Below, piece by piece: positions 603-26,441 of a stretch of 27,765 nt of DNA (its first letter is position 1; each line of letters starts with the position of its first letter). Source of the DNA: a virus. Lineage: Duplodnaviria; Caudoviricetes. The notes beneath the pieces were generated by a model. That model made no database searches and had not been told where the DNA came from. It saw only the letters and a program-made list of their open reading frames with translations. The DNA lies in the IMG/VR virus record IMGVR_UViG_3300030376_006457, positions 1 through 27,765 of that record, one strand, 5' to 3'. Made by a program: the position numbers and the translations under genes.

Positions 603-2522
603 TTATACTTCAGTTAGATTGATCTTATACTTCTTACCTGATCTATTATTGAGTAGGAATAAATCTTTCTCTCCTTCTTGCATGGTCCAATTACCCCAAG
701 TACCATCTACACTATTAGAAGATCCTTCATTATTCAAATGTAAATCCATAGAATGTACATTCTTGAATCTCAAAGTAGATGATCCTATGTCATGGGTATC
801 ATCGGCTGCTGGCAGTATATTTCCAACAGTAATATTAGGATTTCCAGTTAATCCAGTTGCATTACCATTGATAGCACCAACTGTAAGAGTGTTAGTACCA
901 GGATTATACAGGAAGTCTGTATCTGTCCTGACATTCTCACTACCAGTAGCAGTGTCTACAAATGTTATAAAATGACCTGCATCTGTAGTGTTAGTAGCAG
1001 TAAGTGCTACTGTTGCTGCGTTTAGATTCGTTAGATTACTACCATCAACACCTACAGCAACAGTTCCTGTTAGTTGAGATGCTGGTATTGATGTAAGTAG
1101 AGAACCATCACCAGAGAATTTTGTAGCAAATAATGTACCGTTACTTGAGTTGAACGTTAGATTAGTTCCTGACCTAGGTTGTAGGTTACCAGTAGGACCA
1201 CCTGATGCGTATATTACATTACAGTTACTAACTGTAGATTCATCTGTTACTGTTATCTGTGAAGCAGCACCAGTTACATTACCTATAATATTACCAGTTA
1301 CATTACCAACAAAACCACCTGTTGCTGTTACAATACCACTAGCATTTGCTGTAGTAAGTTGCAACTGACCAAGAGTTGAAATTCCAGATGATGCTTGATT
1401 TATTGCACCATTCACATTACCAACAACACCACCACTTGCTGTGGTAACACCACTGATGGATAATTGTGTTGTCTTAAGATAAGCAGCAGTTGATACACCC
1501 GTAGCATTGAAGTTTCCAACAAATCCAAAACTTCCACCTGGGGCAATATATCCTTTGGTAGTTGTAACTATACCAGTAGCATATACTGTATCTACTCTAA
1601 GTTGACCTACAGTAGATACACCACTTGCAGGGTTCTGATTGAACTGTCCGTTTACATTACCACTGAAAGAACCATCATGGTTTCCACTAGCATTTCCTGT
1701 TAGGTTTCCAGTTACATTACCTACAACTGCACCTGTATGAGTACCTGCAGAGTTTCCAGTAAGATTACCTGTTACATTACCTGTGACGTTACCTGTAAGA
1801 TTACCAAAATATCCAGCAGTTGCTGTGGATGCTCCAGTAATTGATATATGCTTACCTACTATCTGATCTACATGATTGAAACTGCCAGTTGGGCTGATTG
1901 ATCCAACACCTGCAACAGGATTTGTTATAGTAAGACCTGCACCTACTCTTATAATTCCTAAGTTTTGATATGAAGCAAATCCTCTTTCGTCCTGAAAATC
2001 TATTAGGGCATCTGCCTGTGAAAATATTGATACAATACCTGAAGAGAACTCACCTGCAGGTACTTCTACAAATGATAAACCTGCACCCACTCTGAAAGTG
2101 GTAACACCTGTAATACGTGTGAATGCATTAGCATCCTGAATGTCATTGGTAGATTTATTGACTAATACCGTCGCAACACCAACCGTAACACCACCAAAGG
2201 TTTGTTTTGTCTGAATTGCTTGTATACCATTACCAACAAAGTTAAATCTAGTAACAGAACCACCATAACCTGATGGTGCTACACCTTCATCTTCTACTGT
2301 TAGTCCTGAAGCAGTACCTGATGGTGCACCTGATGGAACACCCCAATACCTTTTACCATCTACATTACCATACAATACGTGATCGTTATTTCCTGGTAAT
2401 CCTAAGTTAGGTTCTGCCTCTTCCAGACCAAGGAATCCTGGAAACCCAGTAGTTTGCTGTCTAGTTGTAGATAGACCAGCGTAACTTGTTACGCCTACCT
2501 TACCTGAAAGAAGTTTTGCCAT
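603..2522 (-). CDS. Tail fibre-like virion structural protein, 639 aa
   Basis: Gly/Thr/Asn-rich with GN(V/L)T repeats and G(I/V)ST repeats. C-terminus PAADDTHDIGSS..RFKNVHSMDLHL..GNWTMQEGEKDLFLLNNRSGKKYKINL is typical of cyanophage fibre ends. Confidence 0.75.
   Translation of the reverse strand: MAKLLSGKVGVTSYAGLSTTRQQTTGFPGFLGLEEAEPNLGLPGNNDHVLYGNVDGKRYWGVPSGAPSGTASGLTVEDEGVAPSGYGGSVTRFNFVGNGIQAIQTKQTFGGVTVGVATVLVNKSTNDIQDANAFTRITGVTTFRVGAGLSFVEVPAGEFSSGIVSIFSQADALIDFQDERGFASYQNLGIIRVGAGLTITNPVAGVGSISPTGSFNHVDQIVGKHISITGASTATAGYFGNLTGNVTGNVTGNLTGNSAGTHTGAVVGNVTGNLTGNASGNHDGSFSGNVNGQFNQNPASGVSTVGQLRVDTVYATGIVTTTKGYIAPGGSFGFVGNFNATGVSTAAYLKTTQLSISGVTTASGGVVGNVNGAINQASSGISTLGQLQLTTANASGIVTATGGFVGNVTGNIIGNVTGAASQITVTDESTVSNCNVIYASGGPTGNLQPRSGTNLTFNSSNGTLFATKFSGDGSLLTSIPASQLTGTVAVGVDGSNLTNLNAATVALTATNTTDAGHFITFVDTATGSENVRTDTDFLYNPGTNTLTVGAINGNATGLTGNPNITVGNILPAADDTHDIGSSTLRFKNVHSMDLHLNNEGSSNSVDGTWGNWTMQEGEKDLFLLNNRSGKKYKINLTEV
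1690..1805 (-). repeat. Imperfect 12-bp coding tandem repeats (GNLT/GNVT)
   Basis: Units such as ttacctgttaca/ttacctgtgacg/ttacctgtaaga encode GNLTGNVTGNVTGNLTGN and GNVTGNLTGN. Confidence 0.7.
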
Positions 2523-2860
2523 TACTTAGCGTTCTCCAATACACTTATAATGCATTTCTGTGTGTTATTGACATCTCCTTTAATTTTGAGAATGTCTCCT
2601 GTTTCCAACACCAATCTACCTTCAATAAATGAAGCAGAATCTTGATGTGGAACTCTATATCCGTCAACAATTGGTGTATCAACAGAATTTCTACTGTGAT
2701 ATACACTGAATTGTGTAACTGACGACATTGTGCCCACGTTTGCTACGTTGCCGTATATGACAAGAGAAGCAACCCCTGGAGGGCATGTGTATATACCCAC
2801 TGAGTTAACCGTCAGTGTATGGGTATAAGATCTAAATCTATTAAGTGGGATCGCTGCCAT
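2522..2860 (-). CDS. Small virion structural protein, 112 aa
   Basis: YTCPPG..S.V...NVAN...LVLETGD.L pattern seen in small beta-sandwich proteins beside cyanophage fibres; TAATG-coupled to the next gene. Confidence 0.65.
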   Translation of the reverse strand: MAAIPLNRFRSYTHTLTVNSVGIYTCPPGVASLVIYGNVANVGTMSSVTQFSVYHSRNSVDTPIVDGYRVPHQDSASFIEGRLVLETGDILKIKGDVNNTQKCIISVLENAK

Positions 2861-5800
2861 TTATCCTCCTAGTGCGATAATGAGTGGCGTTAAGGTTGCT
2901 TGAATGCTCTTATTGAAAGCATCACCAGTGACTGTACCAGTCTGTTGGTTGATAGTAAATCCATCACCAACTTTCAGATTACCTCGCTCATCGGTTGAGG
3001 TATATACTACCCTACCTCCTTTCTCTGATACTGTCTCGTTTTCTGGTATTGTAATACCACCGTCTTTAGGTAGTGCTACACCAATTGTTAGTCCAGCACC
3101 GACATACTCAAACGTATATGAAGATGCAAGTATTAGAGATTGTCTTGCGAAGGGAACTGTAGAACCAACACCAACGTTAGCTGGGATAGTCTGATCAACA
3201 GTAATTGTAGAAACACCAGCTGTAACTGGAGTCGTACTATTTATAGTATAATAAGAAGGTCCAATTCCAGCAGTTGCTGTTGCAGTTACTCCTGATGTCG
3301 GTGCATCAATCGTAATGCTAGGTGCAGTTCGATATTGTGAACCATTTGCAAATAGATTTACAGAGGTTATACTACCAAAACCACTAACAACTGCAATACC
3401 TTCAGCAGTTATGCCATTAGGACCAGAAGGTGCCGAAGCAGTAACTTTTGGAGGATTAGCAGTTGTATAACCACTACCAGGATTGGTAATAGATACGTTT
3501 ACTACTTCATTGTACAATTCACCAAGATAAAATACCTGACCAGTGTAAGGTCTTTGAGTCAATCCAGATACTACTACCTGATTGTCCTCTTCTTTAGCAA
3601 TCTGTGCTACTGCACCTGTCTGTGCCACAGTACCAATACCTGATGCTATCAGACCATAAGTACCGAATGATGCGTTAGAGTTATTGAGGTCACACTGTCC
3701 ACCTGATACACAAGTGACAGCAGACTCATCACAGATAGTAAAGATAGAAACTAACTGAGCATAAGCATCATTTGATATAGTAACACCTATACCACCTTGG
3801 TTGTACTGAGTATATGAGTCAACAACCATTGACTTGATACCCATTACATGATTTCCATCAATCCTTAGACCAACACTATTAGGAACAAAGTTAGTACAGT
3901 TCCTAACATATGGTGACTGAGTACATACACCAACATATCGTGCTCCAGCTCCTGCAGGTCCAATATTGAGAGTAAATGTATTAGTGGTAGCAGCAGTAAC
4001 AGCAGTTATAATACCTGCTACATGATCAGATGCTCTAGGATAGTTATGGTTACTACCATGATTATCTTGCTCACATGTAAATGTCAAAGCACTTGTAGTA
4101 ATACCAACCTTAGAATTTGATTTCTGTATGTTGTTAGCACTAGAAGTGATATAAGTATGATTATATTGTCCACCACTTGTCACAGCATTAGATGATGTGC
4201 CACCAGCCCATAGATGTGCAGTAACGTTAGAAGATTTTCCAACATTTAGTATGATAGTAGTACCAGTAGTACCAATAATCTCTACAGGTTGATCGTATGT
4301 TCTATCTCTCTTCTGCTTGATAGAGTTAGTAACAGCAGAGTAGAATGTATGAGGTGTAGTATTAGTAGAAGGAATCTTCTGACTATCAAGAACTACAACA
4401 GTAATATTATTATCATCTACCTTAGTAACTTCTATCCACTTACCACTAACAGGGTCTGTTGCTCTTGGATATGCTTTTCTAGCAGCAGCACCAGAAGCAC
4501 CACCAAACGCACATTCAAAAGTTACACCACTATCATCTATCTTAATATAATCACCACTTCTCATACCATGATCAGGTATGGTCAGTGTCATAACACCTGT
4601 GTTAGGATTATATGCACCACCAGTTGCAGTATGATTGTCTATCGTTGTACGAGGATATGTATGGTTTGAACCATGACTATCTTGAGCACAAGTAAATGTT
4701 AGTTTACCATCTCCAATCTTTACCTTATCACCCTCTTGTAATGAGTGAGATCCGATAGTAAGTTCTAGAACACCTGTACTTGGTTCGTAAGTTGCACCTG
4801 AAACATTATGATTTACTGCTGGAGTTGGACCAACATTGACTGTAAAGTTAGTAGCATTTAGAACTGTAGCAGTTATAAACTTACCACTTATAGGATCAGC
4901 ATCATTGTCACGTACATTATTAGCACCTCTAGGATAAGTATGATCACTCCATGTACCATCCATAGTACATCTGAAGGTCATAGAGTCATCATCAATACTG
5001 ATGAAATCTCCTGAAGTTAATCCGTGGTTAGCAGTTGTAGTTACTGTAAGGATACCAGCAACAGGACTATATGTTGCTGTAGAAATTGATAACCTAGTAG
5101 GAGCAGCTAAACCATGAGCATTCTCTGTTGTAAATGTTACAATACCTGATGTAGGATCATAATCTGCAGCAGTTGGTGCTGTAGATAAACCAGAGTTCCA
5201 AGCAGTCTTGACTATTGGATTACCAGTTGCACTAACAAACCTATGATTGTTTACAATACCACCTGGCGGATATGATACCATAGCACCAGTATTTGCTGCA
5301 CCAATGAATGACATATTCTGGAGCAGTACGCCATTGTTTACATGGAATAAGTCCTTACTCTTGTTCTTTGGTACTACCTGTGCATTTCTTAGATCATCTC
5401 CATCTATGGTAACATTACGAGGAACAAATATCGGGTTCTCTTCTTCGTATATACCTGCAGCAACTCGTATAACATTACCTGCCTTTGCCTTTAGACAAGC
5501 AGCTTCAATAGTTCTTAGAGCATCTCCTTCCGAGAATCCTGTATTACTATCATTTCCATCTTCATTAACATAATATATGTTTGCTACACTAGCACCTGCA
5601 CCTACCCATTGCAATCCACCATTATCAGTTGCTTGTAATACACTCTTACCAGTACCAACAGTACCATTAGCATCAAGGAATGTACCACCAATCTGAACTA
5701 AACCATCAGTTTGTAGGGTATACTCAGGTTGTGTACTACCAATACCAACTCGCTGATTGACAGGATCAAATACAAAGTTAGAAGCACCACCAAATTTTAG

Positions 5801-6181
5801 GTCTGCTTTCTTATATTGTACTGAATATACTTTATCTGCAGCGTTTGTCTGAATTTCTGATAGGTCTGACCATGATACACCAACACCTGTGGTTATCAGT
5901 GCTTGACCGTTTGTACCTTCTTCACTATTCTGATCGTAAACTTTACCTGTAAATCTTGCAGTACCTCTTACATCGAGATCTCTTACAGGTTGTGTACTTC
6001 CAATACCAACCTGACCTGCAGCAACAATACCATCAAAGTTAGCAGTTGATGCTACATCTAAACCGTAGATCGGGTTGGTTTTACCAATACCAGTCTTTTC
6101 ACCGTCAGCATCAACTACAAGAGCCTTGTCACCGACTTCGAGACCTTTTTCTACGGCAAACTTCTTATTAACTGATGCCAT
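2861..6181 (-). CDS. Large virion structural/fibre protein with pectin-lyase-like beta-helix and nested repeats, 1106 aa
   Basis: N-terminal (V)GIGST repeats; YYVNEDGNDSNTG..ALRTIEAAC..G.Y.E beta-helix cap; QSPYVRNCT..MVVDSYTQ..GYAQLVS-like core; C-terminal TFEYVGAG..GGRVVYTSTDERG. Confidence 0.8.
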   Translation of the reverse strand: MASVNKKFAVEKGLEVGDKALVVDADGEKTGIGKTNPIYGLDVASTANFDGIVAAGQVGIGSTQPVRDLDVRGTARFTGKVYDQNSEEGTNGQALITTGVGVSWSDLSEIQTNAADKVYSVQYKKADLKFGGASNFVFDPVNQRVGIGSTQPEYTLQTDGLVQIGGTFLDANGTVGTGKSVLQATDNGGLQWVGAGASVANIYYVNEDGNDSNTGFSEGDALRTIEAACLKAKAGNVIRVAAGIYEEENPIFVPRNVTIDGDDLRNAQVVPKNKSKDLFHVNNGVLLQNMSFIGAANTGAMVSYPPGGIVNNHRFVSATGNPIVKTAWNSGLSTAPTAADYDPTSGIVTFTTENAHGLAAPTRLSISTATYSPVAGILTVTTTANHGLTSGDFISIDDDSMTFRCTMDGTWSDHTYPRGANNVRDNDADPISGKFITATVLNATNFTVNVGPTPAVNHNVSGATYEPSTGVLELTIGSHSLQEGDKVKIGDGKLTFTCAQDSHGSNHTYPRTTIDNHTATGGAYNPNTGVMTLTIPDHGMRSGDYIKIDDSGVTFECAFGGASGAAARKAYPRATDPVSGKWIEVTKVDDNNITVVVLDSQKIPSTNTTPHTFYSAVTNSIKQKRDRTYDQPVEIIGTTGTTIILNVGKSSNVTAHLWAGGTSSNAVTSGGQYNHTYITSSANNIQKSNSKVGITTSALTFTCEQDNHGSNHNYPRASDHVAGIITAVTAATTNTFTLNIGPAGAGARYVGVCTQSPYVRNCTNFVPNSVGLRIDGNHVMGIKSMVVDSYTQYNQGGIGVTISNDAYAQLVSIFTICDESAVTCVSGGQCDLNNSNASFGTYGLIASGIGTVAQTGAVAQIAKEEDNQVVVSGLTQRPYTGQVFYLGELYNEVVNVSITNPGSGYTTANPPKVTASAPSGPNGITAEGIAVVSGFGSITSVNLFANGSQYRTAPSITIDAPTSGVTATATAGIGPSYYTINSTTPVTAGVSTITVDQTIPANVGVGSTVPFARQSLILASSYTFEYVGAGLTIGVALPKDGGITIPENETVSEKGGRVVYTSTDERGNLKVGDGFTINQQTGTVTGDAFNKSIQATLTPLIIALGG

Positions 6182-6215: not shown

Positions 6216-9200
6216 TCAAGTAATACGCATGATATAAGCGATAGCATAATATGGAGGTAGGTTTTTACCAGTTCCAGAAACACCGTTATCGTTGACAGTA
6301 GTAGCAACGGTAATACCAGTACTATTACTACTAGATGTCATTGTCCTTGTATTAGGTAGATTAGATCTATCATTCAAGGTATTTCCATCAGCATTATCAT
6401 CATTATGAGAACTAAATGTGTGTGCGTGGCCAGGGTCAGTAACAGCAGATGTTGCAGTGTGACCATGCTCTACTACTACAGCATTAGCAGAACCACCTGT
6501 GCTGTCAGCAGCATATGCACTACCTCTACCAACAATAAACTTATCAATTAAGTTTGGTGTACCGTTTGATCCATTACATAACGCCCAGTTACTTGGTACG
6601 TTAGCATCTGTACCAGACCACATGATGATACCACCAATAGGTATGACACCCTTACCAACCAGTGTTGAACCAGTAATGGTATGTGAAGAAGCACTTATGT
6701 TACCACTTGCAGTGATTGCTCCAGATGTAAGTGCTCCAGTTACAGTAGCTACACCAGAGATGCTAACGTTATCTAAATCAGCATGACCATCAACGTCAAT
6801 ACTACCACTCACTGTTGCATTATTAGATACAGCAAGTGCAGAAGCAGTTAATGTAGCACCTGAGAATGTGAGTGAAGAACTATCTTGTAACTCTCCACCA
6901 GCTCCAGCAAGAACAACACGTCCAGAAGTAAGATCAGTAACCTTTAGACTACCAATAGTTCCTATACCTGCAACACTTAGAGTCTCACCACTGCTAACAC
7001 TAGATTGTCCTAATGCTAACTTATCAAATGAGTAGGCATTACTACCACTTTCATAAGAGATAGGAGCAAACTCTTGCCATCTCTCAGATCCAGATCCATC
7101 TGTCTTCACCCAACCAAGATTTCCACCTGGCGTGTGACTTACTCTGAATAGAATATTATCTTGTGACTGACTAGTAGTAGGAGTAGTTTCTTGTATTCCA
7201 ACAAAAACCTGCTTACTAATATTACCAGACCTATTACCTCTTAGTTTTAGATCTACTATATCAGTATTACCATTACTGTATAAGTTGTTATTGACTGTTA
7301 GATCATCAAATATAGCACTTGTTGGCATAACAAAGTCTTGACCAACATCTGTATTATCAAACTTATCAATTGTATCAATCTCTTCACCTGTTACAGCGTT
7401 GATCTTCTTACGTCCAATATAGAAATCACCCTTATCATTCATACCAGTATAAGCAACCAAACCACCTCTAGTTTGAAGTGACTGAGCTCTCAACTGGTCA
7501 TCCTCAGTCGGAGTGCCCGACTGGTTCTGTGGCATCGCTGTACTGTAGTTACCTGGACCATATCCAACATACTCGAAGGTATGACCAGAAGCACGTATAA
7601 TACTATAGCGTCTATTTTCTACTGGTAATACATTTATACGACGTACTGATACATTAGGTTCATGTGCAACAGAGTTTGAACCAAGAAGACCTCGAATAAC
7701 ACTGGTTCCAGTTTTATTTGCAACCCTTACAATTTCATCCTCAATTAGAAGATAATCACCTCTTCTCAACATGGTGACATCAGCAAGACTTATTGTAGAT
7801 CCAACTGCACCTAAACTACTTGTAAGTCTTGTAGTAACACCACCATAAAGAGGAATATCTCTATCAGATGTTCTTGCAGAAATACCAGTACCATGAGCAT
7901 ATCCAGTAGTAATCGTTCCAGATGCCTGATTAGTTGGGAACTTACCAATGTTTACTAGAACTGATGAACCATATCCTACCCTATCAGTAATATCAAATGT
8001 ACCATTTAGATTAGCATTAGGAATACTGTTTATAACAATCTGATCGCCCTTTCTAAGACCAATATCACCAGCAGTTTGAACTGTTGCTATACCACTAATA
8101 TGGTTATGTGTTACAGATGTTATACTAATTGATTTACCAACACGGTAGATGTATCCACCAGTAGCACCACCATCAGCAGAACCAGGAACTGTAATTCTTC
8201 TACTATTATCAACACCACTTATCTTATGCAACCCATTATAAGGTGCACTAGACATTCCTACTACTTGAATTATATCACCAACTCCATTATCAATTGCAGT
8301 GATATTGAATGTAGGATCTGTTCCAGCAGCAGAGTGAGGAATACCTACTATAGTAATTGTACCACCTACCAAGTAACCTGAACCTGGTTGATTGATATCA
8401 AATGCACTAACTGCACCTGCAGCATTTACAGTAACATCTACTGTCAATCCATGTCCAGTACCACCTGAGGTTTCTACATTGAAATAGAACTCAGCATTAC
8501 CACCACCAGTACCTAAGTTAGTACCACCACTAAGACTATTTGTTGCAGATACACCATTGAATCCATGATGATGACTAGCATCTAACCTTAGGTCACCACC
8601 ACTATGTGAACCAGCACTAAGACCAATACCAATATTAGTTGTATCAAGGAATGTTTCTATAGATTCTTTTGATACACTATTAGCAGGGTTGTTAGTCTTG
8701 ACTATACCAGGTTTACCTCTTAGTGCATAAGACTTAGCAGATTCAGGATCTACAACAGTATTATCAATACTTGTCTTAGGACGTAAATCATTTATGTCCT
8801 GTGGATAGAAGTTAGAAGTTGTTGAGAAAGGAGATACAGTAGGTTGAGCAACATAACCTAAAACAGTTAGATCATATACACCATCTTGTATGTCTTGCTT
8901 ATAACCTTGAATCTCTTGGGTACCATAAATCTGTAATGGTTTAGCTACATCACGTTTAGCAAAGTATGGTGCGAAAGTTCTACCAGAACCAACTATACCT
9001 GAATCATGTTTAGTATATGGAATATAACCTATTACATCAGCAGTAATAGTTGATATGCCACCAGGATTAGTATTCAAACCAATTCTAAATGTTCTATCAT
9101 CATTGATACCAATAACACTAAACGTACCATTGAAACCTGAATTATCAGATCCAAGTGTATTATTAGCACTTCTTAGTCTTAGTATCTCAATTGTATTACC

Positions 9201-11729
9201 AGTGTCTAATTTATGTGGAGACTGTGCAGTAATGATACCAACATTAGATACCCATGTTGCATCCACAATTACATTATCAGTTCTTAGATCAGATACTGAA
9301 CCAAGATTTGTATTATTATTCTGATACTTAGTATCATCAACTACAGCACCTGATTCTGCAATTACAAATCCATCAGTAGGTGGAACAGCAACAGTATTCT
9401 GTGGTACAACATATCTTAAACGATATATTCTATCAAGATCAAATCTATTATCAGGATTTCTTGTAATAAATGTATTATTAGTCTTAGGTGATAAATCTGC
9501 TTTATTATTAACTATCTGTGTACGTAATGTATTACCTGCACCAACATTGACATACCAACCAGTATTAGTTTCATATTGTACTGGATGACCAGGATCCCCA
9601 GGCTTCTTACCCTCTACAGTAGATACTATTGTAAGTTTTCCACCAAGGTTATTGATACCTGTTAAATTAGTACCAGCAGTTGCATTGTTATAAGTTGATG
9701 CTACCTTGATCTTATCATCAGCACTTGATATTACAAAGTAATCTTTGTTGTGCTCAAGTCCATCAGGAAGGTTACCATCTTCAGAATATATCTTTACCTT
9801 CTCTCCCACTAAGAGGTCATGATCTTGCTCAAGAGTGAAAATGTTACTGGTAATAGAATTGATACCAGAATTTGTTCCAACAGTATACTCTTTCTTACCT
9901 ATAGACCAATTAGCAATAGTAGTATTATTGCCAGGCATATAAACCGAAGTACTATAAGTGGTAAGACCTATACCAACGGATAATGTTTCTCCTATCTTGT
10001 TACCAACATTATAACCATTAGCAGTCTTTGATGGTACAGTATCCTTACCTGTAAATCCATACAAGAATAACCTAGAGTCTGTAGTAACACCAGCAGTAAC
10101 ATCTACATCAATTGCTTCCCAGTTGATATTAGTTACAGCAGCATTATTTTTCTTAGGTGGTACAATAGAAGTGATATAACCTTTATCGTCTCTTGTAAAT
10201 GCCTTATCTCTATATCCATCAGCAACAAAAGATCTCTGACCAAAGTTAGAGTTAGAGTTGGTAATAGATATGTCAGCACCAGATGATACCTGATAATGCT
10301 TACCATATCCAATAGCAAATACAGATACCAACTGCATTACAGCCTTATTAGATGCCTTTATATGGCAACTTTCATATTCAGGTTTATGTCTTGCGTTAGC
10401 ATCCGTATGTAATGATACTGAAGTTCCTAATGCTGCTTGATCTTGCCAAGTTCCCGTTGATGCATTATATCTTACAAATGCATTATCATCTTTCTGTAAA
10501 GATACTCCAGTAAACTGTGCAGCAACAATAGATTTGAATCCAGTTGCTTTTGATCCATCACAATGAAGACCATTGATACCATAAACTGATCTGATTGAAC
10601 AGTTGAAGATATAAGGTGATGCAGAAGTTACACTATCACTCTCAATCTTGACCTGTGGAGTCAACCCACTTAGTGAAGGAGTTGCTGTTGATGCTGGTAT
10701 TACTGGTACAGTATATGTAAAATTAGTATCATTTATAACTTGATTTACAATATAACTTCCATCATAACCAGTGTCATTGACACCTGAAACCATTACAGGA
10801 GTACCAACTGCCAAGTTATGATTAGTCTTTGTTACTACAGTAACTATCTTAGTAGCAGTAGCAGATGATGGTGTTGCACCAGAATAAATGTCTTGTATCT
10901 CAAGAGCACCTATCTGTGATATAGATCCAACAATCCTAGTCTCATCAACGACCTTCTCGAAGTCATCATTAGTAGGATAATTAGGTAATGCTCTACCACT
11001 GTTAGTACCATAAGCTAAAGTTAACTTATGATAATACATGTCAAGGTCAGTGTTACCCTTGCCAGGTATTATATTCTGACCATCAGCATACTCAAAACAA
11101 GTTAGCTTATGGTGTGAAAAATTAGGAGTATAAACATTGCCAGTATAATCTTTATAGATCCTATCATTAAGATCAGCGTCAAAGAAACTGAATCCAAAGA
11201 AGAAACAAGATCCTGTTACTCTGAATATTGCTGTTGGTGCTATACCTGATGCAGTAGGATCAGGAACATATTTTGGTCTTATCTTAGTCTTTCTGAGGTC
11301 TTGTCCAACAATGGAGGTACCTCTTGGCATAATAACTCCACCATTAGCAGAGTTGAATTTATATAATACGTTATCGGTGTCTTGTATATCAAAGTTACTT
11401 CCAACTGCAAACTCACTTATAGACGCTGCACTTCCACTTACATCAGTTATACTACCAGCAGTATTGATTTGTAATCCTGGTCTGTTATCGATGTAATGAA
11501 CACCTGGCGAGACCATGATAGTTGTCTTATCAAACTTATCATTATCCTTACCTAACTGATATGAGAACCTAGCAGATTCAATCAGTGCTCTTTGTATCGT
11601 CTTGAACGGACGAGTTCTGGAGTTACCAGTGTTACTGATATCATCAGTCGCATCAAGTTCCTCAGGGTTTACGTATATGACGTTGCCCTGTACATTTTTT
11701 AGAAAATTTTCTAGTCTACTTAGTGGCAT
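6216..11729 (-). CDS. Giant virion structural protein (beta-helix, repeated small beta domains, C-terminal tail-collar/fibre tip), 1837 aa
   Basis: N-terminus MPLSRLENFLKN..IYVNP..LDATD...GNSRTRPFKTIQRALIESARFSY matches a conserved cyanomyophage structural family. C-terminus IPIGGIIMWSG..WALCNGSNGTPNLIDKFIVG..NLPPYYAIAYIMRI is a tail-collar domain. Confidence 0.85.
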   Translation of the reverse strand: MPLSRLENFLKNVQGNVIYVNPEELDATDDISNTGNSRTRPFKTIQRALIESARFSYQLGKDNDKFDKTTIMVSPGVHYIDNRPGLQINTAGSITDVSGSAASISEFAVGSNFDIQDTDNVLYKFNSANGGVIMPRGTSIVGQDLRKTKIRPKYVPDPTASGIAPTAIFRVTGSCFFFGFSFFDADLNDRIYKDYTGNVYTPNFSHHKLTCFEYADGQNIIPGKGNTDLDMYYHKLTLAYGTNSGRALPNYPTNDDFEKVVDETRIVGSISQIGALEIQDIYSGATPSSATATKIVTVVTKTNHNLAVGTPVMVSGVNDTGYDGSYIVNQVINDTNFTYTVPVIPASTATPSLSGLTPQVKIESDSVTSASPYIFNCSIRSVYGINGLHCDGSKATGFKSIVAAQFTGVSLQKDDNAFVRYNASTGTWQDQAALGTSVSLHTDANARHKPEYESCHIKASNKAVMQLVSVFAIGYGKHYQVSSGADISITNSNSNFGQRSFVADGYRDKAFTRDDKGYITSIVPPKKNNAAVTNINWEAIDVDVTAGVTTDSRLFLYGFTGKDTVPSKTANGYNVGNKIGETLSVGIGLTTYSTSVYMPGNNTTIANWSIGKKEYTVGTNSGINSITSNIFTLEQDHDLLVGEKVKIYSEDGNLPDGLEHNKDYFVISSADDKIKVASTYNNATAGTNLTGINNLGGKLTIVSTVEGKKPGDPGHPVQYETNTGWYVNVGAGNTLRTQIVNNKADLSPKTNNTFITRNPDNRFDLDRIYRLRYVVPQNTVAVPPTDGFVIAESGAVVDDTKYQNNNTNLGSVSDLRTDNVIVDATWVSNVGIITAQSPHKLDTGNTIEILRLRSANNTLGSDNSGFNGTFSVIGINDDRTFRIGLNTNPGGISTITADVIGYIPYTKHDSGIVGSGRTFAPYFAKRDVAKPLQIYGTQEIQGYKQDIQDGVYDLTVLGYVAQPTVSPFSTTSNFYPQDINDLRPKTSIDNTVVDPESAKSYALRGKPGIVKTNNPANSVSKESIETFLDTTNIGIGLSAGSHSGGDLRLDASHHHGFNGVSATNSLSGGTNLGTGGGNAEFYFNVETSGGTGHGLTVDVTVNAAGAVSAFDINQPGSGYLVGGTITIVGIPHSAAGTDPTFNITAIDNGVGDIIQVVGMSSAPYNGLHKISGVDNSRRITVPGSADGGATGGYIYRVGKSISITSVTHNHISGIATVQTAGDIGLRKGDQIVINSIPNANLNGTFDITDRVGYGSSVLVNIGKFPTNQASGTITTGYAHGTGISARTSDRDIPLYGGVTTRLTSSLGAVGSTISLADVTMLRRGDYLLIEDEIVRVANKTGTSVIRGLLGSNSVAHEPNVSVRRINVLPVENRRYSIIRASGHTFEYVGYGPGNYSTAMPQNQSGTPTEDDQLRAQSLQTRGGLVAYTGMNDKGDFYIGRKKINAVTGEEIDTIDKFDNTDVGQDFVMPTSAIFDDLTVNNNLYSNGNTDIVDLKLRGNRSGNISKQVFVGIQETTPTTSQSQDNILFRVSHTPGGNLGWVKTDGSGSERWQEFAPISYESGSNAYSFDKLALGQSSVSSGETLSVAGIGTIGSLKVTDLTSGRVVLAGAGGELQDSSSLTFSGATLTASALAVSNNATVSGSIDVDGHADLDNVSISGVATVTGALTSGAITASGNISASSHTITGSTLVGKGVIPIGGIIMWSGTDANVPSNWALCNGSNGTPNLIDKFIVGRGSAYAADSTGGSANAVVVEHGHTATSAVTDPGHAHTFSSHNDDNADGNTLNDRSNLPNTRTMTSSSNSTGITVATTVNDNGVSGTGKNLPPYYAIAYIMRIT

Positions 11730-22189: not shown

Positions 22190-23329
22190 TTATTTAGCAA
22201 GCATATCTACATCTATTTTAGCATAATTTACACCAAGATATCCATTTGGCATAGTAACTACTGCTTCTGGTATTATATTAATAATTTCTTGAGCCATAAC
22301 ACCACTATATCGAGGAGAACCCCAAATATAATTCCACTCGTATATATTAAGACCTGATGGAGATCTACCTACTTTAACAATATTCTCCTTCAATCTTATA
22401 TCACTACTTCCACTCCAGTGATGAACACCTAAACCTACGTTAGGCATATTCTGCCACCAAGGTGTCTTCTTAGTATTATCATCCTGACTTGGAGTTGGTA
22501 ATACAGGTCTTTCACTTTCAGTAAATCCTCCACCTTTTCCAGCACCAGTGTAAATTGGTGGCATCTGTCCTTGTGGTGTAGATGCTACTCCACCTCCAGA
22601 TCTAGATGATCTTAGTATATGGTACATATCATAAGCAAAAGTAATTGTAGTTTTTACAAGTTCTGCTTTACCATATGCTAAAGGTGCTGCAACTATATTT
22701 ACAGGGAATGCATTTGTAATATGATATGTAATACTACTTGGTTTTTGTTGAGAAAATGCACCATGTCGTGTCAATCTATTATTTCTATCAGTAGTACCTT
22801 TACTAAATGCAGTAACCTGCATATCAACCTTATAAGTTGATGGATAGTTCAATTTCCTATAAGATCCAGTCCGACTATCATCAAAAACATTTATATCTGG
22901 AGAAATAAACTCCATCCATGAATTGAATACATCATTAGTATAATAATCTTTCTGAGAATACCAAGTTAGTATAATTTCAGGAAACTGTCTATAAGCAGCA
23001 AACTTTTGATTTATACCCTGTCTTATTCCCTGCTTCTGAAAAACATCCAAACGTGATCCTGGAAGAACCGCTTCTGAACAAAATAATGCTAGATATTGTC
23101 CAGCATCTGCTAGACCTTTTTCATCCTTATAAAACGATCTGTCAGAAATATAACCCTTCAGAGAACCTGAAGAAGCAGTTGATAGATTAAACGATACATC
23201 ATAATTATTATTAAACGCAGGTGTTATATTACCAAACTTAGAGACTACTTCATAAAGTTCTTGAGTTGGTAAAAATTGCCTGTTTTGAGCAAAAGTCCAT
23301 ACTGATTTTTGCTTTGAACTTACAGCCAC
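22190..23329 (-). CDS. Tail tube-family protein (gp54/gp19-like tube initiator) with C-terminal Peptidase_S74-like chaperone; likely GTG start at 23329
   Basis: LFCSEAVLPG..FAAYRQF..LTWY..FNSWMEFI..YP..YK..NAFPVNI...LAYG..LVKTTITFAY is the tube-fold signature; ends SDIRLKENI..G..IYEWNY..GVMAQEI..PEAV..GYLGVNY. The track start at 23371 overlaps gp4. Confidence 0.8.
   Translation of the reverse strand: MAVSSKQKSVWTFAQNRQFLPTQELYEVVSKFGNITPAFNNNYDVSFNLSTASSGSLKGYISDRSFYKDEKGLADAGQYLALFCSEAVLPGSRLDVFQKQGIRQGINQKFAAYRQFPEIILTWYSQKDYYTNDVFNSWMEFISPDINVFDDSRTGSYRKLNYPSTYKVDMQVTAFSKGTTDRNNRLTRHGAFSQQKPSSITYHITNAFPVNIVAAPLAYGKAELVKTTITFAYDMYHILRSSRSGGGVASTPQGQMPPIYTGAGKGGGFTESERPVLPTPSQDDNTKKTPWWQNMPNVGLGVHHWSGSSDIRLKENIVKVGRSPSGLNIYEWNYIWGSPRYSGVMAQEIINIIPEAVVTMPNGYLGVNYAKIDVDMLAK
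22191..22197 (-). promoter_or_regulatory. Late promoter variant CTAAATA
   Basis: Plus strand TATTTAG overlapping the upstream gene's stop, 21 nt before the gp26 ATG. Confidence 0.6.
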
Positions 23330-23364: not shown

Positions 23365-23799
23365 ATGTCATATAAAGGTAAGTTTAAACCAATTAATAGA
23401 AAAAAGTATAAAGGTGACCCAAGAGAGATCATTTATAGATCACTTTGGGAACTAAAGTTTATGAATTACTGTGATAGTAACAAAAATATTATCAAATGGT
23501 CATCTGAGGAAGTAATAATACCTTATAGATGCCCTACTGACAATAGAGTCCATAGATACTTCCCAGATTTTTATATCAAATATAAAGATTCTAAAGGAAA
23601 ATTGCATGAGAAAATAATAGAAATAAAGCCAGCAAAACAAGTAAAAGAACCAAAAATACAAAAAACAAGAACTAGAAAATACGTAACCGAGGTTATGACT
23701 TACGCTAAAAATACTGCAAAATGGGTAGCAGCAGAGGAATTCTGTAAAGACAGAAAATGGGAATTCCAAATAATGACGGAGAAAGAACTTGGAATTTAG
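23365..23799 (+). CDS. gp4: Head completion protein gp4 (TnsA-like PD-(D/E)xK nuclease fold), 144 aa
   Basis: YKGKFKP.N..KYKGDP..IIYRSLWE..FM.YCD..WSSEE..IPY..HRYFPDF..IEIKP..N.AKW.AA. Confidence 0.92.
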   Translation: MSYKGKFKPINRKKYKGDPREIIYRSLWELKFMNYCDSNKNIIKWSSEEVIIPYRCPTDNRVHRYFPDFYIKYKDSKGKLHEKIIEIKPAKQVKEPKIQKTRTRKYVTEVMTYAKNTAKWVAAEEFCKDRKWEFQIMTEKELGI

Positions 23800-24190
23800 A
23801 AATACCTTCCCTAAATCAAAAACTGTAGGTACTCCCATACCTGGACACTTGATGTTATTCCAGTATGGAGCAAAAACTGCCGAGAAACTAAGATTTTATG
23901 ATAGAAATCCGTTATGTTATGTTATCGCATCTCAAGGACCAGCATTTTGGGGTGTAAACCTTCATTATTATGCTCCAGATGAAAGAGAAATGATTGCTGA
24001 GTGGGTAGATGAAGCCAATCCAGCAGAACTTCCTAAGGGATACCATAAATACCTAAAATCCTATGTGCAAACACTCTTTTTGGATATTGCGATGGAAGAA
24101 TGGGAAACCGCCTTTAATTTACCTATTGAAGAGTTCGTAAGAGATCTTGGAAGTATTGAAATACCTATTAGTACTAGGGGAATACACTAA
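23789..24190 (+). CDS. gp2: DNA end protector protein gp2-like, 133 aa
   Basis: PGHLMLFQYGAKT..LRFYDRNPL..FWGVNLHY..HKYL motif; adjacent to gp4 as in T4-like phages. Confidence 0.75.
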   Translation: MEFRNTFPKSKTVGTPIPGHLMLFQYGAKTAEKLRFYDRNPLCYVIASQGPAFWGVNLHYYAPDEREMIAEWVDEANPAELPKGYHKYLKSYVQTLFLDIAMEEWETAFNLPIEEFVRDLGSIEIPISTRGIH

Positions 24191-25776
24191 TGGCACCTAA
24201 AAAAAGAAACAACAATACTAACTCTACGGTACTAAGTATCAACAATGTAAACTTAGGTCCTAATGAAAAAGCAAACAGTAATTACAAAAGCATTTCTTAC
24301 ACAGTAAATGGTCAGAAGTATAGTGAAGTTATAAATTTAGATGTTCAGAATGCAACCTTTCTACAACCAGCATTTGCACCTAGTTTCAAGAAAAATGTAG
24401 ATACTAAACGTGGTACAAGAGTCAGATCATTCAAGTTAAATACCAACAATGAAGAGGGTAAAGCAATAATAAACAGTGAAGAAAGAAAAAATGCATATTC
24501 AGGAGCAATAACAGAAGTATATAATGAAGCAGTTGAGAATGGTAATGAAGTTCTATTTCAAAACTCTGCTGCAGAATCTGGTGTAGATTTATCAGGTGCT
24601 AATATTCCCGATAATAATGAGAATATTGATACTGAAGTTGTTGAAGAAGTAGATGATGCCAAACCAGCAGAAATAACAGGAAAGAAATCAAGTAAACCAG
24701 CACCACACCTTTGGTATCCCCAAGCTGTTGACTACGTTAAAGGGAATATGGATCACATATTCATTGAGTCCTTCAAGTATCAGGCTCCTCAATCAGGGAT
24801 GTCCTTCTTCAACAAACCAGAAAAAGGAGATAAAACAGGAGCAAGTTTAGGTTCTTTTGTAACAAAAGGTATACCTAGAGGAAGTAATATAGCAGGTGGT
24901 ACAAACTTTGCTGGTGGATCCAGTGATACATCAAAATCTTCTCAAGGTTCAGTAAAACTACCAATACCAAACTCTCTAAAATCAAGTAATGGTGTTAGTT
25001 GGGGTGGTGCTAAAGCAAATGCTGTAGAGGCAGGTGCTTTCTTTGGTGCATCAAGAGAAATAGGTAATTTAATGAAAGGTGAGACAAACTTAGTAGGTAT
25101 GGTCAAATCAGGACTAGGTGATGCAAGTAATGCATTGAGTGAAGTTAGAAAAGATATGAGGGGTGGTGGAGCATCAGGAGATATTCTTTCTGCAACTCTT
25201 TCTAAATTAGCATTAAGTAAAATAGGAATCAATGTAGACCCTGCTCAATTCATTACAAGAAGTACAGGTAATGCAATCAACCCTAACCTTGAACTACTAT
25301 TCAATGGTCCTCAACTTAGAAATTTCACCTTTGCATTCCAATTTGCACCTTATGATAAGGAAGATGCAACAGAGATAAGAAAAATTATGAGATTCTTCAA
25401 ACAAGGTATGTTACCATCATTCGCTAATGAGAGTGAAGGTAGTAGCATCTTCTTGAGTTCTCCTAACGTATTCCGTCTTGCATACAGGACTGGAACTAAT
25501 AGAATAAAGAGTTTGAACATGTTTAAGATGTGTGCTCTTACTGCATGTGAAATTGACTATACCCCAGAAGGTGTGTGGGCTGCATATGCAGACCAAAGTG
25601 CAGGTTCTCAACCTATTTCATCAAATATGGCACTATCTTTTACCGAACTTACACCTATCTTTGGTAATGATTATGATGAAAAACCAGATGAGAGTATCCG
25701 TGACCTTACTGTAGGTGCTTCGGGTGCTACTCCAAACTCCACTCCAACAATCGCAGAGGATGACGTAGGATTCTAA
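24190..25776 (+). CDS. gp48: Baseplate tail tube cap gp48-like, 528 aa
   Basis: LPIPNSL..GVSW..INPNLELLFNGPQLRNFTFAFQFAP..EIRKIMRFFKQGM..FLSSPNVF..CALT..DYTPEG..LSFTELTPI. Confidence 0.88.
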   Translation: MAPKKRNNNTNSTVLSINNVNLGPNEKANSNYKSISYTVNGQKYSEVINLDVQNATFLQPAFAPSFKKNVDTKRGTRVRSFKLNTNNEEGKAIINSEERKNAYSGAITEVYNEAVENGNEVLFQNSAAESGVDLSGANIPDNNENIDTEVVEEVDDAKPAEITGKKSSKPAPHLWYPQAVDYVKGNMDHIFIESFKYQAPQSGMSFFNKPEKGDKTGASLGSFVTKGIPRGSNIAGGTNFAGGSSDTSKSSQGSVKLPIPNSLKSSNGVSWGGAKANAVEAGAFFGASREIGNLMKGETNLVGMVKSGLGDASNALSEVRKDMRGGGASGDILSATLSKLALSKIGINVDPAQFITRSTGNAINPNLELLFNGPQLRNFTFAFQFAPYDKEDATEIRKIMRFFKQGMLPSFANESEGSSIFLSSPNVFRLAYRTGTNRIKSLNMFKMCALTACEIDYTPEGVWAAYADQSAGSQPISSNMALSFTELTPIFGNDYDEKPDESIRDLTVGASGATPNSTPTIAEDDVGF

Positions 25777-26441
25777 TGGCATATTTCGATCTTTTCCCAG
25801 ATATATTATTACCATCATTCTCAAATGATCGTAATTCTAGCAATGATTTCCAACTATCAAAAAACCTCTTCAAAAGAGGTAAAATCAGAGATGACTTCTT
25901 TGAGAATGCAGTTGCATTTAACACATATGCTGTAACTGGTGATGATAGACCAGATAACGTTGCATATGAGATATACAAAAGAGAAGATTATGACTGGATT
26001 GTGCTATTATCTAATAATATCATTAATGTAAGAGATGAATGGCCAATGAGTCAATATGACTTTCAACAATATTTGGAGAATAAGTACGATACTGTTCAAT
26101 TGACCCAAATACATCATTATGAAACAAAAGAACAAGTTGATCTAGATGATAATATTATCTTACAAGGTGGTCTAGTTGTAGATGAGAATTTCTCCTTTAG
26201 ATATACCCAAGATGGAACAGTAGAAACAATATCTGGGTCTGAATTAGTAAATTCAGTATCTAACTACGAATACGAAATAGAGAAAAATGACAAAAAACGT
26301 GAAATAGTGCTTCTTAGAAAAGAATACGTCGGAATCATAAAAGAAGATATGAGAGAAATAATGAGTTATACCGATAGTTCACAATATATCAATAAGAAAA
26401 TGAAGAAGGGAGAAAATCTTAGGATTCTATCGTCGAGATAA
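25776..26441 (+). CDS. gp53: Baseplate wedge protein gp53, 221 aa
   Basis: MAYF..FP..KNLFKR..DRPDNVAYEIY..DWIVLLSNNIIN..EWP..IHHYET..VSNYEYE..ND.KR.I.LL. Confidence 0.9.
   Translation: MAYFDLFPDILLPSFSNDRNSSNDFQLSKNLFKRGKIRDDFFENAVAFNTYAVTGDDRPDNVAYEIYKREDYDWIVLLSNNIINVRDEWPMSQYDFQQYLENKYDTVQLTQIHHYETKEQVDLDDNIILQGGLVVDENFSFRYTQDGTVETISGSELVNSVSNYEYEIEKNDKKREIVLLRKEYVGIIKEDMREIMSYTDSSQYINKKMKKGENLRILSSR

Follow-up and report, generated by a model that had tools for sequence, protein, structure and literature searches.

A predicted four-level nest of homologous barrel domains in the tailspike-like beta-helix of a marine cyanophage

Deep nested domain insertions are rare, and their published showcase, the Si3 insertion of cyanobacterial RNA polymerase, appears in the available excerpts as an ancient, fixed case (PMC13114784, PMC11515920). 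According to these excerpts, Si3 comprises eight domains at six levels (PMC13114784) and includes circular permutants and some strand swapping (PMC11515920). Its recursive insertions involve HABAS/SBHM domains and branching, and the mechanism of insertion is called unclear (PMC13114784, PMC11515920).

The cyanophage protein described here, P0001, shares this architecture: a small beta domain appears to be recursively inserted in its own copies, which close last-in-first-out. However, P0001 is not a member of Si3. The host of its nest is a phage tail-region beta-helix instead of the beta' subunit of RNA polymerase, and its repeated unit resembles RIFT barrels, the top matches of the innermost copy D; no HABAS fold was present in the top 50 rows of the fold search with D. 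Moreover, Si3-type insertions are described, in the excerpts at hand, as few and ancient, whereas the copy number in the P0001 family varies between genes with 92–96% identical flanks.

Three further systems are close to parts of P0001. Like phage endosialidases (PF12195; phi92 and K1F), in which the barrel is an insertion in the propeller, P0001 would carry a small barrel in a receptor-binding protein, with the same predicted barrel fold at a moderate score. End_beta_barrel PF12195 is the best weak Pfam match of D (21.8 bits, E 1.8e-4), below its gathering cut-off of 35, and 2 of 42 intact copies match it at E up to 1. The matched stretch of the endosialidase barrel, however, covers ~83 residues compared with ~100 in the P0001 copies, and no description of self-nesting in these barrels was found in the excerpts of the literature examined. 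The second system is the E1 FCCH domain, with which the P0001 barrels share the predicted fold class (a six-stranded closed antiparallel barrel), a putative role as virion surface decoration, and the region of the HG motif (Pfam columns 4–24), although they have their own F-x-C, YPR-x-x-DP, and H-x-F motifs. E1_FCCH PF16190 is the sole Pfam lead for the whole of P0001, at a sub-threshold 15.7 bits (cut-off 29.5), and 10 of 42 copies match it weakly (best E 0.02). Judged by these scores, the P0001 barrel is a Pfam member of neither PF12195 nor PF16190. FCCH barrels are known on phage tail tubes, as stated in the portions available of two reports (PMC13576161, PMC13612043). Finally, P0001 resembles beta-helical tailspikes (Pam1, PDB 7eea, and polysaccharide lyase-like helices) in its predicted parallel beta-helix and its location in a tail-fibre gene cluster, but this helix is short (~240 residues) and is split by a 435-residue insert. 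Within open-licence PMC papers and bioRxiv, the literature search turned up no account of cyanophage virion proteins with nested barrels.

Gene organization and order of the copies

The window, i.e., the whole stretch of 27,765 nucleotides that was analyzed, comes from a T4-like marine cyanophage and covers its tail and baseplate region. The flanking genes match PHROG tail-fibre and baseplate-hub families, and the 245 phage records with a match to the insert all fall under Synechococcus, Prochlorococcus, 'Cyanophage', or marine viruses. Within an otherwise minus-strand region, a group of four genes (23365–26441) is on the plus strand; we take it to be the usual T4-like baseplate and tail block. 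The GC and AT skews switch near 23000.

P0001 (2861–6181, 1106 residues) is on the minus strand, as are all of its parts given below. It is a tail-fibre/tailspike-like protein, matching PHROG 17885 'tail fiber protein' with an E value of 6e-152. Its N-terminal region (residues 1–195, 5597–6181) is 92–96% identical to one- and two-copy relatives and has zero Pfam matches; from its position, it likely serves as virion attachment and shaft. The first half of the host beta-helix (residues 196–310, 5252–5596) matches Pfam DUF1565 with 33.8 bits (cut-off 20.3), and its model matches beta-helices. The second half (residues 746–870, 3572–3946) is modelled with a lower pLDDT of ~66, and conserved acidic residues are present in both halves. 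The C-terminal region (residues 871–1106, 2864–3571) shows a weak PHROG 460 match at residues 890–968 and 90–93% identity among one-, two-, and four-copy sister genes. Directly downstream, a 112-residue gene (2522–2860, minus strand) stands alone in this window, while homologues of it such as P0144, P0147, and P0225 (E ~1e-10) run on into C-terminal nested and branched arrays of the same barrel.

Between the two helix halves lies the nested insert (3947–5251). It starts with the leading strand of copy A (residues 311–325, 5207–5251), which corresponds to profile columns 87–99 and marks a circular permutation. The A opener (residues 326–360, 5102–5206; columns 1–22) is broken at site I, after the HG motif, and is joined to the A closer in one-copy orthologues such as P0016, in which A occurs alone and unsplit. 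The B opener (residues 361–455, 4817–5101; columns 2–77) is broken at site IV, before the last His strand; B is whole in P0008, an A(B) protein. The C opener (residues 456–513, 4643–4816; columns 1–52) is broken at site III, after YPR, and C is whole in P0025 and in marine virus AG-345-D19, both with the form A(B(C)). D (residues 514–624, 4310–4642) is the intact innermost barrel. It is followed by the closers of C (residues 625–670, 4172–4309; columns 53–97), B (residues 671–688, 4118–4171; columns 84–99), and A (residues 689–745, 3947–4117; columns 25–77).

A sequence-only reading had proposed that four copies of ~100 residues are nested as A(B(C(D))) instead of being arranged in tandem, that each insertion occupies a different loop, and that A is circularly permuted. 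Its motifs and their order were recovered as claimed, and two profile analyses agree with it. For the first, a 100-column HMM was grown from the intact copy D, admitting only near-full-length, uninterrupted matches (131 non-redundant copies). Along P0001, this profile maps to residues 337–366 (columns 1–29), 368–455 (2–81), 462–513 (2–53), 521–623 (2–99), 624–666 (52–96), 667–687 (79–99), and 681–742 (17–77); the openers of A, B, and C are thus followed by a complete D and by the closers of C, B, and A, i.e., in last-in-first-out order. For the second, a profile of intact copies from which four-copy proteins were left out was used to score the nine possible opener/closer pairings. A continuous match was obtained in three of the nine only, namely the nested ones: A with 82.5 bits (columns 1–77), B with 83.7 bits (columns 2–99), and C with 94.3 bits (columns 2–94), compared with 115.4 bits for D. 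The six non-nested pairings gained at most 2.4 bits over the better half. Each spliced copy therefore matches the intact-copy profile continuously, a check close to the one which the earlier reading had put forward, and moving the leading strand of A to its end raised its score from 82.5 to 92.7 bits (columns 1–97), in line with the circular permutation. The use of different loops (sites I, IV, and III) is likewise borne out by the profile mapping, the unsplit orthologues, and coevolution. The four rebuilt copies are 34–40% identical to one another. As far as the amino acid sequence can tell, the nested order A(B(C(D))) is hardly in doubt.

That tandem repeats, decayed fragments, or an assembly artefact explain this order is extremely improbable and is refuted for the sequence order, for although a contiguous C-into-D window scores well against D by plain alignment, that window contains part of D, and against this reading stand the rebuilding of the profile by the nested pairings alone, the single contigs that span positions 3812–5240 of the insert region in 4/4 runs from four studies and thereby exclude misassembly, the preservation of the plan in four diverged orthologues, and a longest DNA repeat within the insert of 48 nt at 81%. 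Two public contigs are 99.96–99.97% identical, one of which may be the source of the window itself. Metagenome contig joints that skip parts of the insert were considered as deletion variants and rejected; with their short sides and 85% likeness, they were taken as paralogues.

Other comparisons were less informative about the pairing. A BLAST self-comparison of P0001 reported the diagonal alone. A partner-specificity test based on the similarity of halves across the 131 intact copies, showed no discrimination and was confounded by overlapping columns. Among these intact copies, P0164_451 is the best match of the C opener and the second-best match of the C closer. In 11 B(C(D)) modules, the co-variation of identity was higher for adjacent pieces (0.75–0.76) than for matched halves (0.38–0.45), against the simple expectation.

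Two observations concern the sites of insertion. In P0001 and P0002, the YPR motif of B is followed at site III by a loop of 8 additional residues (residues 420–428; region 5003–4898 and 4919–4893, minus strand), which is absent in P0003 and P0004; this loop is a sign that site III tolerates inserts. The upstream 1837-residue gene (6216–11729) encodes a weakly similar beta-helix (E 2e-4) with one barrel-like insert (10641–10901, minus strand; End_beta_barrel E 9e-5, below the cut-off) just before its SPY motif, which is where the nest lies in P0001. The position of the nest is likely an insertion hot spot of this helix family.

Copy number and nesting among relatives

The survey of nesting depth among homologues, which the earlier reading had suggested, showed variation in an orthologue set of 70 proteins with both beta-helix anchors, taken from the best 120 of 1270 matches plus the query. 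One copy is present in 50 of the 70 proteins, two in 13, three in 2, and four in 5, and the length of the insert between the anchors increases accordingly in steps of ~105 residues: 135–140 residues in the 50, 237–244 in the 13, 341 and 357 in the 2, and 454–466 in the 5. Some two- and three-copy forms (P0040 and P0053) use an alternative site inside the leading strand of A; the second barrel occupies this site, which is unused in the window, in the two-copy orthologues P0040, P0041, P0048, P0051, and P0079. A homologue in SynMITS9220M01 (L085 2553–6056) shares the helix and the C-terminus but has a long N-terminus of unrelated sequence and a short insert; it is possibly a zero-copy form.

On a tree of the host parts with 44 rows after removal of near-copies, copy number requires 10 changes, where 3 is the lowest possible number and shuffling gives 14.2 on average; this tree is itself mosaic, and the 10 changes are not equal to 10 insertion events. 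The four-copy window protein is sister to one-copy genes on it. The ends of P0001 are 92–96% identical to those of P0016 and P0008, but its beta-helix is only 76–82% identical to theirs, and C and D are 82–89% identical to those of P0003, whose N-terminus is only 59% identical. From this pattern, the beta-helix and its insert behave as an exchanged block.

Nesting also extends beyond the orthologues. Over the family, breaks cluster at profile columns 21–27, 42–45, 51–53, and 76–85, with a further site near 66–70. Site IV was excluded from both of the following bracket counts, since an opener ending there looks the same as a whole copy in permuted form. Among 189 redundant proteins, 106 closers agreed with the opener on top of the stack, a single closer crossed, and the informative closers were last-in-first-out in 40/41 cases. 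In the best 150 of 718 representatives (50% identity), the order was last-in-first-out in 32/37 and broken in 5/37; shuffled labels gave 0.67 ± 0.06 for this representative set, and a single shuffle out of 1000 attained the observed level. The B(C(D)) pattern occurs in 6 non-orthologous proteins with 18–54% identity per piece, and branched and deeper nests are found in giant proteins, as well as in the examined part of P-SSM4 gp7. In comparison with these giant cyanophage virion proteins, P0001 is small and unbranched and has a complete one-to-four orthologue series.

Several of the other nested proteins have features of their own. The giant virion proteins L003, L012, L025, L030, and L031 contain a recurring four-deep nest closed by stacked His strands, which in L003, L012, L025, and L030 lies upstream of an ASPYTQN motif like that of the host helix; the nest of L030 is apparently about six deep. 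P0190 (4764 residues) carries one four-deep nest in six tandem copies. P0017 and P0018 (~1600 residues) have B(C(D)) in which D itself holds another copy, circularly permuted, at the hairpin of column 42.

Predicted fold and reassembly of the split copies

An AlphaFold2 model of D alone, based on 42 rows, is all beta, with a pLDDT of 89.7 and a pTM of 0.82. Among 48,161 chains, its top match is the barrel of phi92 endosialidase (PDB 4hiz; Z 7.7, RMSD 2.6, 80 aligned residues, 15% identity), followed by the E1 FCCH domain (E1 residues 216–295; Z 7.0, RMSD 3.0, 77 aligned), a phage FCWL1 chain (Z 6.6), and then reductase and riboflavin-synthase barrels. Z values of 7–8 are moderate and within the range that the tool gives for common arrangements. 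These matches agree with the weak Pfam matches and with the Atlas lead for the barrel, an FCCH cluster (0.91); sequence searches of the PDB gave nothing significant. The repeated unit is predicted to be a six-stranded RIFT-type barrel.

The model of residues 196–870, based on 39 orthologue rows with just 5–6 rows over C and D, has a mean pLDDT of 75.6 and a pTM of 0.51. The alignment was restricted to orthologues, as a deeper one including the non-orthologous B(C(D)) proteins was misaligned in a trial and dropped. The flanks align as one beta-helix with the receptor-binding domain of the Pam1 tailspike (PDB 7eea; Z 18.0, RMSD 4.2, 207 aligned residues over both flanks, model range 1–675, ~12% identity), and most of the top 50 rows are tailspikes, lyases, and carbohydrate enzymes related to them. 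The insert therefore appears to project as a loop from a helix whose two halves join up behind it, consistent with the earlier proposal that it lies inside a beta-helix. In this model, the closers have pLDDT values of 71–83, and the strands of each rebuilt copy fall at nearly the same profile columns as those of D. Coevolution was analyzed in 453 intact copies (effective 345): the couplings 13–72, 17–69, 12–75, 26–62, 40–85, 38–87, and 30–98 cross every break, and the breaks lie between strands. This is independent support for the reassembly of the halves. Judging from the strands, the pLDDT values, and the couplings, the split halves very probably refold as whole nested domains.

An interdigitated body as in Si3, in which the sequence is nested but strands (for instance, the final His strand in B, C, or D) are swapped between copies instead of forming four discrete barrels in a line, is quite unlikely. 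All pieces are homologous, and a coupling score matched the core of C with its own last strand in just 1/5 proteins and gave mixed results for A and D; yet this test failed on the intact control D too. Furthermore, the model of D by itself is confident and includes its own last strand, the core of B favoured the B strand in 5/5 proteins, and orthologues with unsplit B and C exist, all of which argues against such swapping.

In these nested domains, the conserved residues H19 (129/131 intact copies), C38 (129/131), and H87 (131/131) are all present in the four copies of P0001, and it had been suggested that such a His, Cys, His set could bind a metal. The contact graph speaks against a single site of this kind: H19, site I, and the C-terminus are at one pole, whereas C38, H47, and H87 are at the other, with H19 separated from C38 and H87 by 33 vs 6 units. 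On this ground the single H/C/H site was rejected. A metal ion locking the split halves is unlikely more generally, even though coupling links C38 to H87, their strands are paired, and H47 and D41 are close to them, since H47 is His in just 85/131 copies and Lys in D, and a two-ligand pair may be a mere buried structural contact. A Cys-His contact, with or without metal, is possible.

In the same graph, sites III and IV are on the side of the centre that faces C38, H47, and H87. A, which is entered at site IV, holds B at its site I; C is inserted at site IV of B, and D at site III of C. Each child is thereby placed away from the attachment point of its parent, as expected of a stalk, in a graph that places the N-terminus poorly.

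Proposed role and origin of the nest

The whole is best explained, in our view with good probability, by nested barrels in a beta-helix that form a side stalk for host attachment. Four homologous domains of ~100 residues are inserted one inside another in a loop of a predicted tailspike-like beta-helix, and each likely refolds as a six-stranded barrel, the chain running out and back. Together, the four barrels probably make up a stalk at the side of a virion spike, which would offer more reach and more glycan-binding surface for host attachment. If a barrel measures ~3 nm, the stalk would be ~10–15 nm long, and contacts with sugars would be of low affinity. The stalk, probably located on the virion, would be roughly linear. 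A lead for the location is a homologue in S-SCSM1, noted in RefSeq as a 'long tail fiber protein (virion protein)', which is 42–45% identical to P0001 over the helix and C-terminal parts and divergent in its barrel pieces; 45 virion proteins are given for S-SCSM1 in the excerpt available (PMC9602691). Binding of a host glycan by the barrels is a tentative assignment by analogy. Its lead is the barrel of K1F endosialidase, which, according to the accessible part of the report, holds a polysialic-acid site and a host-discrimination hotspot (10.1101/2025.10.06.680778); the shared fold itself shows no function. Adaptation of S-TIM4 to poorer hosts, as summarized in the excerpt seen, changed tail-fibre and baseplate genes and did not preferentially involve hypervariable regions (PMC6224464).

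Alternatively, the nest may be real but a passive structural spacer or decoration without host binding, tolerated because the barrel ends are adjacent and the loops accept inserts, its copy number drifting by recombination. This is a possibility to be taken seriously, if a doubtful one. Siphovirus tail tubes are decorated on the outside by FCCH barrels, as the available portion of one report states (PMC13576161), the same barrel is found across a wide range of virion proteins, among them P-SSM4 gp7 and orthologues of the 112-residue gene next to P0001, and one copy suffices in the 50 single-copy orthologues. Against a passive spacer, the four-level plan is kept down to 38–52% identity in B, C, and D (P0005), synonymous differences match or exceed replacement differences over the whole insert (58 vs 43 codons, summed), and the insert moves with the beta-helix as the most divergent block.

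The nest may have originated when domains were, on rare occasions, inserted non-homologously into loops that tolerate them, after which double cross-overs would have replaced a leaf with a subtree from paralogous genes of other virion proteins. An extension of this view, which we consider rather unlikely, is a living combinatorial grammar: the barrel would be pluggable into about five of its own loops, subtrees would be swapped between virion genes by recombination, closely related phages would tune the length and valency of a host-binding stalk one barrel at a time, and an invariant Cys-His pair would lock the halves. If so, the one-to-four series would be its minimal working model.

Recursive self-insertion is already known from Si3; what is added here is a small one-to-four ladder among genes with flanks >90% identical. 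In the P0001 family, near-identical genes differ in their nesting, which involves several loops as well as a circular permutant, and the one-, two-, three-, and four-copy forms are small enough to express. The nesting explains why domain annotation misses such proteins, and the nest offers a scaffold for branched single-chain design. The ladder makes it possible to test how a chain folds when three of its domains close only after the innermost has been made, and whether the length of the stalk changes the host range of cyanophages.
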